From assembly GCA_002414225.1 (NCBI GenBank), contig DHYV01000042.1, forward strand, positions 20,878 to 84,877: a stretch of 64,000 nt of DNA, written 5' to 3'. This document shows, one piece after another, positions 50,281 through 62,633 of this stretch. The notes beneath the pieces are model-generated. The model did not search any database, was not told the DNA's origin, and worked only from the letters and a program-made list of their open reading frames with translations. Every line of letters starts with the position of its first letter. Position 1 is the stretch's first letter. The translations under genes were made by a program, and so were the position numbers. This stretch comes from Desulfobulbaceae bacterium UBA5121 (lineage in GTDB: Bacteria > Desulfobacterota > Desulfobulbia > Desulfobulbales > UBA5123).

Positions 50281-50310
50281 GTGGTGGAGGCGGCGGGAGT
50301 CGAACCCGCG
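50281..50310. repeat. att repeat, distal copy (orphan tmRNA 3' fragment)
   Basis: GTGGTGGAGGCGGCGGGAGTCGAACCCGCG, identical to 62604-62633. Confidence 0.9.
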
Positions 50311-50355
50311 AACAACCTTCCAAGCCTATAATATTATTGAATTTATTTTTTTCGA

Positions 50356-50373
50356 GGCCAACGCGTGGACAAC
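50356..50373. repeat. Island-internal subterminal repeat (candidate integrase arm-type site)
   Basis: GGCCAACGCGTGGACAAC, 17/18 identical to 62538-62555, lying 45 bp inside the att core. Confidence 0.5.
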
Positions 50374-50395
50374 GTCCGCTTTTTACCATGGTTAG

Positions 50396-50716
50396 CTAAA
50401 CAGCGGTAACGGTAGTATCTATCCGGACGTGTAAGGTCTTTTTGATGGTGGCAAAGATAGCCGACAGATTGTCCATGTTGGGGTTGCCAGAAGCTGAAAG
50501 CATCCGATGAAGACTTTTACTCGGCTTGCGGACTTCCTCGGCCAGACGCTCAAAACCGACCGTTGCGTTTACCAAGTCACGCAAAATCAGCTTGGCCGTT
50601 GCGGAATCGCCGTCAAGCATCAAATCAATGGCCTCGTTCAGTAAGACATTTGCGAATTCGGGATCAGACTCAACCCGCCTCTTGATTGTCTCCTTGAAGT
50701 CTCTTGTAAGCGCCAT
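50396..50716 (-). CDS. Addiction-module antidote protein (HigA-family HTH antitoxin)
   Basis: DPEFANVLLNEAI...SKSLHRMLSASGNPNMDNLSAIF matches the pattern of the antidote partner of killer proteins as I recall it. Confidence 0.75.
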   Translation of the reverse strand: MALTRDFKETIKRRVESDPEFANVLLNEAIDLMLDGDSATAKLILRDLVNATVGFERLAEEVRKPSKSLHRMLSASGNPNMDNLSAIFATIKKTLHVRIDTTVTAV

Positions 50717-50742
50717 GATGTTTCCCTCCTCTAACCGTTTAA

Positions 50743-51087
50743 CTACTTCTTTTTCTGCTGGGCCTTACGGTCTTTGTACTCTCCCCACAGCTCCAATGCT
50801 CTGTCAATATCCTTTTGCTGCCCCTTCTTGGTTCCTCCGCCGAGGAGAATAATGAACCTGTTTCCTTCTTGACCGATATAGACCCTGTAGCCCGGTCCCC
50901 AATTCAAACGGTATTCACCAATCCCGCTGAACCACTTGACGTTGGAAAAATTCCCCTGCTCCATTTTGAGTATCGCGGTCGAAATCTTTGCCGCCGCGAT
51001 GGTGTCCAGCCCCATGAACCACTCTTCGTAGGGACTGAAACCGTCTTCACGGATATACTCAACGACTTTGTAGCTCATACCCCACAT
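50743..51087 (-). CDS. Addiction-module killer protein (RelE/HigB-superfamily toxin)
   Basis: [47 protein letters not shown]. Alternative start at 51078. Confidence 0.75.
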
Positions 51088-51248
51088 GGTAACACATAAG
51101 TTACTATTCCATCAAGAGTGTTTTCCCTGCAACGATGCATAAAAGGCTTTCCAGGTGGGAACGTTCGCCATAACCGGCAGTGAAAAGCGGGGCGACGAAG
51201 GCGCGCCGCTTTTCACTATCCGCATTGATGGCGTTGTTTGGCGTTGCC

Positions 51249-59709: not shown

Positions 59710-59806
59710 TTCCCTATAAACAAGTCGGGCTCAACAAGCTGATTCCTCCCGCGAAGAAGATGTCAGCCAGTGAGCCCCCGCAGACACCACACAAGGAGGC
59801 ATCTAC

Positions 59807-61108
59807 ATGCCCACACCTTACAGTGGGGGTGCGTCTTCTGTCAATCATCCCGACAGCGCCACCCCCGACCATCAGCATACCATCGTCCCCTCTTCTCATT
59901 CCTCTGAACCGGCAGGTTCCGAGATTGGCCCCGTTGTCCCTGGCGCTCCGGGTTTTGAAGCCCCACAAACCCGTATATCATGTGGGGCTATACTCGCCAC
60001 CTCCGTCGATACCTTGAAACTCAGCCTGTATTTGGAATGGTCTTCCCTTGAGGTTTTCCAAAAGTTGCAGGTCGCAAAGGAACTGGCCCAAGAGCAAAAT
60101 GTCGACTGCATGCCTATCGAGCTGTTCGGCCATTCCTGGAACGTTTCCCGTGCCGGTGTCCATGCCTATTCGTACCGGCTCGTCAGCGGTGACGTGCGGC
60201 TTATGCTCAGCCAACGGCAGGCAAACAGCGATTACCCCAACGCCATCTTGGAAATCGGCTCCATGTCCTGTTGGGCTCCTGGGTACATGGAAATCTACCA
60301 AGGAGTTATCCGGATGCTCGAAAGATGGGGCGGCATCTTGGCCAAGGAGCGTGTCTCAGAGGTCCACCTTTGCGCGGACGTGGTCGGACAATCGCTGAAA
60401 GACCTCCCCTGTACGGATGAAGATTATTGGATTACTCGCGCCCACCGATTCGCCGTGTTTCACAACCGGCGCAAGCTAACAGGCATCACCATCGGCAAGG
60501 GTGACATTATGCTTCGGGTGTATGACAAGGTTGCCGAGCTGGCCGCCAAGTCCACCCACAAGCAGGGATTCTTTGCCAACGCCTGGGGCCTGGAAACCTT
60601 CGATCAGACTGACGTAACCCGGTTTGAATTTCAGCTCCGGCGGAAGGTCATCACTCAGTTTCAACCGGGCATCAATACGGTCCAGGACCTCACCGACCAC
60701 TTGCAGGCATTGTGGGATTACTGCGTAGGGGATTGGGCCAGGCTTACAGCCACAAAGGTTGACCGGGACCAAAGACACCAAGACCGGGCCGTTCTTCATT
60801 CCGTGTGGGATCAGCTTCGCGCGGCCATCTGGACCGGCAAGAAGATCTGCGAGCGCATACAAAGGCAGCTACAGGGAGACTTTGACCGGCTGTGCAAACA
60901 GGCCGCTGGCCTCTCTATGTCCATTGCCTCGTTCTGCGGCCTGCTGCCTGACGACGTTGACGGCATCGTTCAACACTCCCAAATGTATGTTGAACGGGAA
61001 ATACGGCGAATATGGCGGGTCAAAGCCGAGTTCGTCAACCGGATGAGACGAAAAACGTGCCGGCTCGTTGACCCCCTGGTCAATGTTGCCGAAGTCACCC
61101 CCTTTTAG
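59807..61108 (+). CDS. Replication initiation factor-like protein (Rep_trans / phage gpII-like)
   Basis: VSEVHLCADV...GKGDIMLRVYDKVAEL...VTRFEFQLRR resembles rolling-circle-type replication initiator motifs as I recall them. AAGGAGG RBS. Confidence 0.5.
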   Translation: MPTPYSGGASSVNHPDSATPDHQHTIVPSSHSSEPAGSEIGPVVPGAPGFEAPQTRISCGAILATSVDTLKLSLYLEWSSLEVFQKLQVAKELAQEQNVDCMPIELFGHSWNVSRAGVHAYSYRLVSGDVRLMLSQRQANSDYPNAILEIGSMSCWAPGYMEIYQGVIRMLERWGGILAKERVSEVHLCADVVGQSLKDLPCTDEDYWITRAHRFAVFHNRRKLTGITIGKGDIMLRVYDKVAELAAKSTHKQGFFANAWGLETFDQTDVTRFEFQLRRKVITQFQPGINTVQDLTDHLQALWDYCVGDWARLTATKVDRDQRHQDRAVLHSVWDQLRAAIWTGKKICERIQRQLQGDFDRLCKQAAGLSMSIASFCGLLPDDVDGIVQHSQMYVEREIRRIWRVKAEFVNRMRRKTCRLVDPLVNVAEVTPF

Positions 61109-61119
61109 AGGTGTCGACC

Positions 61120-61359
61120 ATGATGCGTTATGCCACCTGCTGGGCTGATATTTGGCACGCAGACGATCCGGATTACAAACCATTGCCGGTGAAGTGTGAG
61201 GATTGCGGTCAGATTACCGATGATTGGGCCGTTTTTGACGACAAGAAGGGCCTTGGGGTCTGCACTTCGTGCCTCGCAATCCGGTATGACCGTGTCCGTG
61301 ATCAGCATCCTACGGACAGCGCCTTGTCCATCCTGCTCAAAAAGACGCGGCCCCTGTGA
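61120..61359 (+). CDS. Small zinc-ribbon protein (CxxC...CxxC), function unknown
   Basis: VKCEDCG...VCTSCL. Lies between rep and int, so it could be an excision or accessory factor (speculative). Confidence 0.45.
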   Translation: MMRYATCWADIWHADDPDYKPLPVKCEDCGQITDDWAVFDDKKGLGVCTSCLAIRYDRVRDQHPTDSALSILLKKTRPL

Positions 61360-61418
61360 TGTTGACTTCCGCCTGCTCACAGAATACGCTTTCCCCACAT
61401 TCAGAAAGGGGGTTGTGT

Positions 61419-62585
61419 ATGCGCGGGCGTATTTATTCGGACCAGAAGTGCCCCATCTGTGGCGGCGTATTTATCCAGGACGACAGGCGGCGGGGCCTCT
61501 TCTGCCCCGACCATCCCGCCCAGGAGGCAACAACACGCTTTCGGGTTCGTTTTGGCCGCAAGACTGCCCGACGTTTCGAGTCCTACCGGGAGGCCGAACG
61601 CTTCCTTGATGGGCTACGGTATGAGGTGGACAAAGGGGTTTACGATCCCCGCGACTATCAGCAGGGGAACCCGCTTGGTTTCGCCGTCCTGGCCGACAAG
61701 TGGCTGGCTGTGAAGGAAAAGGAACTCAAGCCCCGCTCCTTCGCCAACCTCCGGAACTACGTCAGCAAGGCAAAAGCCACGTGGGGCGGCACGAACATTA
61801 AGGTGATTGGCTACGGCGAGATTGAAGATTTCCTCTACGCCCAGGAAGTTTCCGACAAGACCCGGGCCAACATGAAATCTTGCCTGCACACCTTTTGGAC
61901 CTGGCTACGGAAACGCAAGGTCATTACCCAAGCCCAGATGCCGGAGTTCCCGGAAGTCCACTTTGAACTTGGGTGGCGCCAGACCATCGACAAGGACACC
62001 CAACAGGCCATCATCGACGAAGTTTACCGGATCTCCCATCAGGTCAATCCCAAGATCTGGCTTGCCATCAAGTGGCTTTCCACTTACATCTCTATCCGCC
62101 CGGCCGAGCTGGTCAACATCACCGAAAAGGATATTGATCTTCAATCCGGCTTCCTCTTCATCCCCCACCCTAAAGAGAAACGGCCCAAGGTCGTTCCCCT
62201 CCTTGACGAGGATAGGGAACACCTTTCCACGTTGCCGCAAGGGCTGCCCAACCTGTTTTTCTTCCGTCACCCTGCCGGGATCAGTGGCGTTAAAGCCGGC
62301 GACCCCTTTGGGCCGCGCTACCTCTATAAGTGGTGGAAGAAGGCTTGCAACAACCTGGGCGTTGAAGGCGTGGACCTTTACGGCGGCACCCGGCACAGTA
62401 CCGCCTTGGCCCTCCGTCAGGTAGCCACCCCGGAGCAGATTCGGCGCGCCACCATGCACAGCACCAACAAGGCTTTTGAACGGTATTTTCGGGTGGAGAC
62501 GGACGAGGTTAAAGACGTGTACCAGCTGGCCCGCAGTGGACAACGCGTGGACAACCAAAAAAGGAAGAGGGAAACCGGCAAGTAA
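61419..62585 (+). CDS. int: Tyrosine recombinase / phage-type integrase
   Basis: SAM-like N-domain and catalytic C-terminus (...LYGGTRHSTALAL...MHSTNKAFERYFRV). N-terminal CPICG zinc finger. AAGGGGG RBS before ATG 61419. Ends about 18 bp from the att core. Confidence 0.85.
   Translation: MRGRIYSDQKCPICGGVFIQDDRRRGLFCPDHPAQEATTRFRVRFGRKTARRFESYREAERFLDGLRYEVDKGVYDPRDYQQGNPLGFAVLADKWLAVKEKELKPRSFANLRNYVSKAKATWGGTNIKVIGYGEIEDFLYAQEVSDKTRANMKSCLHTFWTWLRKRKVITQAQMPEFPEVHFELGWRQTIDKDTQQAIIDEVYRISHQVNPKIWLAIKWLSTYISIRPAELVNITEKDIDLQSGFLFIPHPKEKRPKVVPLLDEDREHLSTLPQGLPNLFFFRHPAGISGVKAGDPFGPRYLYKWWKKACNNLGVEGVDLYGGTRHSTALALRQVATPEQIRRATMHSTNKAFERYFRVETDEVKDVYQLARSGQRVDNQKRKRETGK
62538..62555. repeat. 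Island-internal subterminal repeat (candidate integrase arm-type site)
   Basis: GGACAACGCGTGGACAAC (itself a tandem GTGGACAAC x2), 48 bp inside the att core, within the int 3' end. Confidence 0.5.
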
Positions 62586-62603
62586 CCGATTTCCCTCATA
62601 AAA

Positions 62604-62633
62604 GGTGGTGGAGGCGGCGGGAGTCGAACCCGC
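62604..62633. repeat. att repeat, proximal copy (part of the functional tmRNA 3' end)
   Basis: Identical to 50281-50310. Confidence 0.9.

Follow-up and report, generated by a model that had tools for sequence, protein, structure and literature searches.

The locus described here raises the question of what has happened at the 3' end of ssrA, the gene for transfer-messenger RNA (tmRNA), in Desulfobulbaceae bacterium UBA5121. We analysed a stretch of 64,000 nucleotides from this genome (assembly GCA_002414225.1, contig DHYV01000042.1, positions 20,878 to 84,877), hereafter called the window. The original prediction, made from the letters alone, read 12.35 kb of this DNA as an island integrated in the 3' end of ssrA and held that the functional tmRNA had been left without an obvious terminator. 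Our results uphold the integrase-bearing island with its regenerated and displaced gene ends, whereas the missing terminator has to be given up. We consider it very likely that the tyrosine integrase of a 12.3-kb integrative element inserted this element into the 3' end of ssrA, through recombination between the attachment sites of the element and the chromosome (attP x attB). tmRNA genes are established integrase targets. Islands in tRNA and tmRNA genes are a well-known kind (PMC4383910, PMC4131195, PMC3146451), and the signature found here matches that of the published ones (PMC4383910, PMC3146451).

The boundaries of the element and the target gene are defined by the following features.

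50281 to 50310, minus strand: distal attachment (att) core, an orphan copy of the tmRNA 3' end with T-arm, 3' acceptor strand and ACCA, plus 1 nt
62605 to 62634, minus strand: proximal att core, the functional tmRNA 3' end plus 1 nt
62606 to 62959, minus strand: ssrA, called by ARAGORN and Rfam, with the tag peptide ADDYSYALAA
62969 to 63451, minus strand: smpB, host flank, outside the island

The two cores are copies of the 30-mer GTGGTGGAGGCGGCGGGAGTCGAACCCGCG, which occurs exactly twice in the 64-kb window. The left copy lies where it had been placed before, and the right copy is displaced by 1 bp from the 62604–62633 given originally. Further copies expected by chance in the window number zero with 3 mismatches allowed, and neither additional tmRNA fragments nor tandem islands were found leftward in the window at up to 3 mismatches. 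The identity grows to 35 bp when one mismatch is tolerated. The repeat consists of the final 29 nt of the tmRNA, comprising the entire T-arm, the 3' acceptor strand and ACCA, and one additional base. As predicted, the right copy completes an intact tmRNA gene on the minus strand, which ARAGORN recognises and which matches the full-length Rfam model RF00023 with 194.8 bits, directly downstream of smpB. The left copy is indeed an orphan, in which Rfam aligns the T-arm and acceptor part alone with 29.4 bits, under the gathering score. Islands integrated in a tRNA or tmRNA gene are recognised by an intact target gene at one end and a direct repeat of its displaced 3' fragment at the opposite end, and ssrA shows this arrangement here. 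Rfam matches to mir-87 and mir-1909 within the island were dismissed as chance or hairpin artefacts, both being under their gathering scores.

The DNA between the two copies (12,294 bp) has a GC content of 46.9%, compared with 63.2% in the 50 kb to the left, confirming the AT-richer composition noticed in the original prediction. The k-mer profile proposed there as a check gives the same answer, with tetranucleotide distances of 0.37–0.76 for the island segments, exceeding every control window (maximum 0.30). The island itself is a GC mosaic, in which a toxin module (50%), a minus-strand cargo block (41%) and a plus-strand backbone (54.5%) differ from one another. We also scanned species-representative genomes for SmpB and gathered 41 loci from metagenome-assembled genomes of Desulfobulbaceae and Desulfurivibrionaceae. 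In every relative with homology to the window (15 or more), this homology stops at 62606 or at most 4 bases away, that is, at the tmRNA 3' end. The closest representative, UBA5123, has an SmpB of 83% identity, the identical tag peptide and about 80% nucleotide identity, and its ssrA is followed by its own terminator and then by an unrelated membrane-protein gene. Among the SmpB-scan loci, none has the left flank of the window downstream of ssrA, and no close relative has MnmE, encoded in that flank, at such a place. Both the deviating composition and the end of the relatives' homology at 62606 mark the DNA between the repeats as foreign.

By exact-protein look-ups, the window falls on contig DKAZ01000025.1 of the metagenome-assembled genome GCA_002448905.1. 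As the window derives from a metagenome-assembled genome, the assembler could have joined two molecules into one, a chromosome whose ssrA was empty and a circular element that carried the 30-mer as well. Logan contigs built at k=31 all stop exactly at either end of the 30-mer, so the repeat does confuse short-k graphs; these stops arise because the repeated 30-mer forms a node, and they are uninformative on site occupancy. However, the island is 100% identical in the ENA assembly ERZ925377 and in two Logan assemblies, and an independent MEGAHIT contig of ERZ925377, built at k=127, crosses the integrase, the core, the tmRNA and smpB at 100% identity. A repeat of 30 bp cannot produce such a join at k=127; therefore, the integrated state is real. 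In addition, three contigs of 50–200 kb connect the left island genes with the mnmE flank, and related loci share the identical integrated layout. The integrated state is no assembly artefact, and a chimera is scarcely credible. In an independent k=127 assembly, the ENA contig k127_261230 begins at window position 59285, inside the island near the boundary between cargo and backbone; differing cargo within that population or a drop in coverage may be the cause.

The enzyme that would have carried out the insertion is encoded immediately inside the proximal core.

61419 to 62585, plus strand: tyrosine integrase of 388 aa with an N-terminal CCCH motif, assigned by PHROG 1, fold and conserved residues

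Its start codon was confirmed by exact look-up, and its stop at 62585 lies 19 bp before the right core copy, close to the 18 bp or so estimated beforehand. The protein matches PHROG 1 'integrase' with an E-value of 1.8e-21. No solved structure is detectable by sequence; its AlphaFold model, with a predicted local distance difference test score (pLDDT) of 83.6, matches the Brujita integrase, XerA, IntI and full-length lambda integrase at 2e-8 to 1e-6. R227, K252/K257, H326, H347 and Y356 do not vary among 25 homologues, in which R325 is conserved to at least 90%; the catalytic set of tyrosine recombinases (Arg, Lys, His-x-x-Arg, His/Trp, Tyr) is conserved, with the first His of the HxxR box as the exception. 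The N-terminal motif C11-C14-C29-H32 is likewise invariant across these homologues and suggests a zinc-stabilised arm-binding domain. Residues 1–35 (61419–61520) are modelled with high confidence as short beta-strands.

The choice of ssrA as a target is also seen in the integrase family at large, which comprises 1331 proteins at E <= 1e-10, mostly unnamed and many from Desulfobacterota. Eighty relatives were taken from metagenome contigs, and in 72 of them the sequence continues for at least 60 nt past the integrase gene; in 34 of these 72 a convergent tmRNA 3' end (TGGTGGAGGCG...) starts 22–207 nt downstream, and other relatives adjoin tRNA genes (Arg, Pro, Asp or Leu). A 55%-identical integrase follows directly after ssrA in L021, another species representative (the related loci carry numbers preceded by L). 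Four related islands were recovered with both ends, each with a 25–30-bp repeat of the same tmRNA segment.

L055: related complete island of 8.3 kb
L064: related complete island of 8.3 kb
L108: related complete island of 4.7 kb
L023: related complete island of 7.7 kb

The identity blocks all start within the 5' half of the T-stem or shortly before it, in agreement with the 'T-loop' sublocation of integration into tRNA and tmRNA genes, in which the crossover is flanked by symmetric halves of the stem (bioRxiv 10.1101/2020.11.02.365908; PMC3146451).

Short repeats at both ends of the island have the layout expected of an integrase that would hold two kinds of DNA sites.

62536 to 62544 and 62547 to 62555, plus strand: two tandem copies of GTGGACAAC, 11 bp apart, putative arm-type sites in the C-terminal coding region of the integrase
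50365 to 50373, plus strand: single copy of GTGGACAAC, a putative arm-type site 55 bp inside the distal core

The window contains exactly three copies of the motif GTGGACAAC, each of them inside an end of the island. The tandem copies are 69 and 58 bp from the proximal core, and the distal copy is part of a 15-mer, CAACGCGTGGACAAC (50359–50373), common to the other arm. Related islands have the same geometry with other words, namely GGGATACC in L055, TGGCACC in L064 and TGATAACG in L108. When 200 nt around the integrase stop were scanned, an exact 8-mer repeated at 10–12-bp spacing was present in 43 of the 72 loci, compared with 11 of 1360 control segments, and the spacing is 11 bp in all loci except one. 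This constant architecture with co-varying sequence resembles the arm-type sites of heterobivalent integrases, and the GTGGACAAC repeats are probably such sites, which the N-terminal domain of the integrase would bind. Motif repeats were also noted in L023; in related islands they lie about 50–80 bp inside both ends, and those on the integrase side are often within the C-terminal coding region of the integrase.

What has become of transcription termination at ssrA is suggested by two hairpins, one at each end of the island.

50223 to 50267, minus strand: displaced, probably ancestral ssrA terminator, a hairpin with a 16-bp stem (50267 to 50233) followed by CTTTATTTCG
62557 to 62597, minus strand: island-borne terminator-like hairpin for the regenerated ssrA, with a 13-bp stem (62597 to 62567) followed by TTCCTTTTTT

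The left hairpin starts 14 nt after the CCA of the orphan copy and folds with -29.4 kcal/mol (z = -7.0), so the hairpin and T-run that had been described behind the orphan fragment stand. In every readable downstream flank of tmRNA among the relatives, a hairpin and T-run begin within about 60–70 nt of CCA, and the outer flanks of the islands L055 and L108 likewise have a hairpin and T-run. By analogy with these relatives, the left hairpin is probably the displaced native ssrA terminator. The right hairpin begins 8 nt past the CCA of the functional tmRNA, folds with -25.5 kcal/mol (z = -5.4) and overlaps the stop codon of the integrase gene, so that the final integrase codons also encode the hairpin. 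An equivalent hairpin is found at the matching position in L055 and L108. This hairpin and its T-run contradict the view that no obvious terminator follows the functional tmRNA. Judging from the sequence, the island appears to bring not only an ssrA end but also a replacement terminator, and the essential tmRNA gene would not be left unterminated, the replacement being packed into the end of the integrase gene.

These features can be combined into a course of integration that is classical and the best supported. The attP of the element would recombine with ssrA at its 3' end, catalysed by the integrase of the island. We place strand exchange in the 7-nt T-loop because the identity block spans the T-arm, the 3' acceptor strand and ACCA; the crossover most likely takes place there, with the inverted T-stem halves GCGGG/CCCGC as possible core sites. 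The copy brought by the element would complete the tmRNA gene, and the hairpin and T-run of the element 8 nt downstream should terminate it. The native 3' fragment and its terminator would have been displaced by 12.3 kb, and this terminator would now close the toxin-antitoxin operon of the island. The att copies are identical over the tmRNA part; therefore, excision would restore an intact ssrA. After excision, the replication initiator (Rep) encoded by the island could replicate the circle, as in pSAM2-type elements.

This Rep is part of a backbone operon, which begins after an 810-bp gap and consists of a 164-aa protein, the putative initiator p433, a 79-aa CxxC protein and the integrase.

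59034 to 59101, no strand assigned: 31-bp imperfect inverted repeat in the 810-bp gap, DNA fold of -30.5 kcal/mol, z = -6.5
59215 to 59709, plus strand: 164-aa internally duplicated protein with weak DUF2274/DUF6290 (ribbon-helix-helix-like) matches
59807 to 61108, plus strand: p433, putative rolling-circle initiator of the RepD/Rep_trans fold (AlphaFold2 model, Foldseek, tblastn and invariant residues)
61120 to 61359, plus strand: 79-aa CxxC...CxxC protein (p79) between rep and int, with no informative family match

The AlphaFold model of p433 (pLDDT 86.6) finds its best PDB matches by Foldseek in staphylococcal RepDE/RepD (4cwc at 8e-9 and 4cwe at 3e-8, probability 1.0); RepD is a pT181-type initiator. 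By tblastn, p433 is related to 25%-identical Bacillus plasmid genes annotated 'replication initiation factor' (2e-17) and to the sole matched open reading frame (ORF) of a 1,724-bp Mesotoga plasmid. D68, D191, Y239, K241, R272 and E274 are invariant, Y239 being the candidate nucleophilic Tyr. Searches of NCBIfam, PADLOC and the phage database gave no match, all 48 database homologues are 'hypothetical' or unnamed, and none of the 48 has a precomputed Pfam domain. We regard p433 as a putative RepD-fold rolling-circle initiator of a previously unannotated family, which as such would nick its cognate origin sequence-specifically. We infer that the inverted repeat in the gap is a candidate replication origin or packaging signal. 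By its position, p79 could be a recombination directionality factor. We set it aside as an excisionase, since it does not resemble the small ORF that takes this place in L131 and lacks an informative family match. The gene for the 164-aa protein contains a duplication of 59248–59294 and 59491–59537 with a period of 243 nt.

The backbone is not constant among relatives of the integrase. Of the 80 metagenome loci, 14 have a p433 homologue immediately upstream of the integrase. Among integrase relatives with a long flank, L051 is the closest (68% identity); it is ssrA-adjacent and carries an AEP-TOTE-type primase and a TrwB/HerA-like ATPase (5263–9511) in place of Rep; therefore, the integrase module travels with different replication and transfer modules. 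In some of the contigs L081, L082, L116 and L074, the integrase is followed by no more than a 14–25-nt fragment of the tmRNA 3' end, and L074 has two different Rep genes on one contig, p433 homologues at 85–1320 and 11603–12514. These contigs suggest tandem element arrays at ssrA or free attP forms.

Several observations weigh against an element that was inserted by its own integrase and could still leave as a replicating circle. The integrase scores 25.7 bits with Pfam PF00589 (Phage_integrase), just below the gathering cut-off of 27.1, and the first His of its HxxR box is off the canonical position (G322, with an invariant Y321 beside it). The fold match of p433 is moderate (template modelling score 0.33–0.51), and p433 has no Pfam match at E <= 0.01, PF02486 (Rep_trans) included. 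Long hairpins do occur upstream of several p433 homologues, which is an uncontrolled comparison across loci. No excisionase was identified in the island, UBA5123 is not syntenic downstream of ssrA, and neither an empty site nor a circular junction was found in the collections searched. The attB junction would be expected to read ...GGCCGGTTCTATTAAGAAAAAA|GTGGTGGAGGCGGCGGGAGTCGAACCCGCG|TCCGAAAATACTCCACTTC and the attP junction ...CCGATTTCCCTCATAAAAG|GTGGTGGAGGCGGCGGGAGTCGAACCCGCG|AACAACCTTCCAAGCCTATAAT. The species-representative relatives include no syntenic empty site; a pattern of left flank and core (attL/attB) had no match in JGI metagenome contigs, and the attP junction had none in viral contigs. 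Exact-protein look-ups with SmpB, MnmE, the integrase and the antitoxin led to contigs that all hold the island or, in the k=31 Logan assemblies, break at the 30-mer. Recent or ongoing mobility is unproven because no empty site or circular junction appeared in these collections, and the label 'ancestral' for the left terminator relies on position and analogy because the closest relative is not syntenic.

These null results could also indicate that the element was integrated as described, has since lost excision and transfer, and is now ordinary chromosome. The scans without attB or attP junctions, the contigs with exact flanking proteins that hold the island or break at the 30-mer, and the lack of a recognisable excisionase, relaxase or transfer gene are all compatible with such a fixed remnant, as is the GC mosaic, which suggests accreted cargo. 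Against it stand the exact match of the repeats over 30 bp, an intact integrase ORF in which the catalytic residues are conserved, intact arm motifs at both island ends, and an equally intact Rep ORF that keeps the invariant residues. Moreover, the null searches covered few samples of this species. A fixed remnant is possible, although we hold it to be doubtful. The element is best read as a defective or satellite-like derivative, which probably still excises and replicates as a circle and forms no particles alone. Domain and profile searches of the island ORFs found no relaxase, coupling protein, FtsK-like protein or virion gene.

The satellite-like reading arises from the company that the Rep family keeps elsewhere. 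In L131-133 (Desulfobulbus propionicus-type contexts), a p433 homologue follows an array of short ORFs and a gene with a Zot domain. In L058, a Zot/pI-like gene (Pfam Zot 7.5e-16, PHROG 'protein I of M13' 2.9e-18) lies just upstream of the Rep homologue, as do Zot/pI-like genes in L054, L074 and L084, the last of which is ssrA-adjacent. A Zot-like gene is also present in L077. The Rep homologues beside Zot/pI suggest that Desulfobulbales, the order to which the cable bacteria belong, harbour integrative filamentous prophages of an uncharted group. Members of the p433 family include Despr_0400 of Desulfobulbus propionicus and one Candidatus Electronema homologue. The island and these inovirus-like prophages have the rep-int backbone in common.

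Could the island then be a complete integrated inovirus prophage, able to make virions unaided? Its Rep family adjoins Zot/pI in related elements, some of them at ssrA, its size is modestly above that of the Zot-bearing element of about 10 kb in L131, and the rolling-circle initiator expected of an Inoviridae prophage is present in the form of the putative initiator p433. Inovirus prophages with att repeats in tRNA genes or beside integrases have been documented, and pI is the single universal marker of inoviruses (PMC6813254). However, no Zot-like gene was detected in the window, where tblastn with the Zot proteins of L058 and L131 gave a best E-value of 0.69, and pI/Zot had no Pfam, PHROG or NCBIfam match in the window. 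Because this universal marker is absent, the island is not an inovirus. The ORF list and a hydrophobicity scan gave no array of short (30–90 aa) single-transmembrane coat genes co-directional with rep, and the neighbours of rep are low-GC genes of the opposite strand that have no relation to those of the Zot-bearing elements. PHROG matches were also examined for a prophage in general, which was rejected: they comprise the integrase, a toxin, a repressor and a weak 'endonuclease' (the Rep), and no structural genes. A self-sufficient inovirus is highly improbable.

It is also conceivable that the island is a satellite-like derivative of an undescribed lineage of integrative filamentous phages of Desulfobulbales that target ssrA or tRNA genes, which we put forward as an unlikely suggestion. 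Filamentous-phage satellites are known, for example RS1 and TLC of V. cholerae, and like these the island keeps rep and is without morphogenesis genes. Whereas the Rep family is linked to Zot/pI in related integrated elements, the island itself has no pI and carries 8 kb of unrelated opposite-strand cargo. No helper phage was identified for the island, and packaging is purely speculative, as is a helper filamentous phage as the route between cells.

The remaining part of the island is occupied by a toxin module and cargo genes, all on the minus strand.

50396 to 50716, minus strand: 106-aa putative antitoxin or repressor, adjoining the toxin gene (PHROG 4268 'transcriptional repressor', 3.9e-5; a weak assignment)
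50743 to 51087, minus strand: 114-aa RelE/ParE-family (HigB-like) toxin (TIGR02683, 83.4 bits; PHROG 3445 'toxin', 8.9e-20)
51249 to 51845, minus strand: P-loop kinase-like protein of the 'DNA topology modulation'/AAA_18 type, all scores below curated cut-offs
51910 to 55293, minus strand: 1127-aa cargo protein with a Laminin_G_3/lectin-like domain and an internal 582-nt duplication
55293 to 58404, minus strand: four low-GC cargo genes for proteins of 117 aa, about 116 aa, 310 aa (three hydrophobic segments) and 337 aa

The toxin is above the curated TIGR02683 cut-off of 62.85 bits and its partner gene lies 27 bp downstream, the arrangement of a type II toxin-antitoxin system (HigB/RelE-like). 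For the P-loop kinase-like gene, gene callers give 188 aa ending at 51815. The duplication in the lectin-domain gene involves 54494–54669 and 55076–55251. The four low-GC genes had no family match in profile searches. A defence system among the cargo was considered and discarded, as PADLOC matches were at noise level only.

Comparison with known elements places the island among the Islander-type islands, which include the ssrA-integrated CP4-57 of E. coli and CP4So of Shewanella oneidensis. In those islands, as here, the integrase adjoins the regenerated ssrA, the displaced 3' fragment forms the direct repeat at the far end, and toxin-antitoxin genes are among the cargo (PMC4383910, PMC5148205). 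The integrase here is not P4-like and belongs to a Desulfobulbales-centred clade with the N-terminal CCCH motif, and no AlpA-type excisionase was recognised in the island. Excision of CP4So deletes a U and thereby inactivates SsrA (PMC5148205), whereas excision here would restore the tmRNA. The low-GC ssrA islands of about 12 kb that have been interpreted as integrative mobilizable elements are likewise bounded by ssrA and a direct repeat (20 bp there), with a conserved integration module beside variable cargo; however, they have a CcrB-like serine recombinase and are often in tandem arrays (PMC3146451), in contrast to the tyrosine integrase, arm-type repeats and single island found here. The gene order also resembles that of actinomycete integrative and conjugative elements (AICE) of the pSAM2 type, elements of about 11–17 kb in tRNA-type genes with the replication gene directly upstream of excisionase and integrase, pSAM2 itself using rolling-circle replication after excision (PMC2440964). 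pSAM2 differs in its host phylum and its pC194 replicon family, compared with the RepD fold of p433, and a TraSA/FtsK-type transfer protein, which belongs to such elements, has no counterpart among the domains of the island ORFs.

Some observations concern the chromosome around the island. The left flank is the housekeeping cluster rpmH-rnpA-yidD-yidC-jag-mnmE (window 44000–49237), followed by a small gene for an Ala/Pro-rich lipoprotein. Such a cluster usually neighbours the replication origin, so that oriC may not be far from ssrA in this genome. The mnmE and lipoprotein genes converge on a perfect inverted repeat of 18 bp with a 2-nt loop (49459–49496), probably a bidirectional terminator. 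The lipoprotein gene (49567–49896, minus strand) has 24–27-nt tandem repeats encoding an Ala/Pro/Glu-rich tail, and gene callers chose an overlapping plus-strand ORF in its place. Elsewhere in the window, the GC content dips at 9000–11000 (0.55) and 17000–19000 (0.49), where an RTX/DUF4214 secreted protein, a flavodoxin-ferredoxin protein and an RRM RNA-binding protein are encoded. We rejected these dips as further islands; they contain ordinary genes, with no integrase or repeat signature seen.

In summary, islands in ssrA are textbook examples of integration, and the value of this one is that of a clean, well-delimited case together with a correction concerning its terminator. The additional interest is modest and lies in the arm-site architecture, the island-borne terminator and the unannotated Rep family. 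The integrase clade is large and mostly unannotated, and its co-varying arm-site layout is recognisable; it gives predictable attP and attB sequences for Desulfobulbales and might provide integration tools for organisms that are hard to manipulate. The unannotated family of RepD-fold initiators connects ssrA islands with elements resembling filamentous prophages. If the island were indeed a satellite of such phages, it would have kept the Rep, the integrase with its arm sites and the long hairpin, would have swapped the virion genes for cargo, and would spread by hijacking a helper filamentous phage, always delivering a ready-made tmRNA 3' end and terminator to its host.

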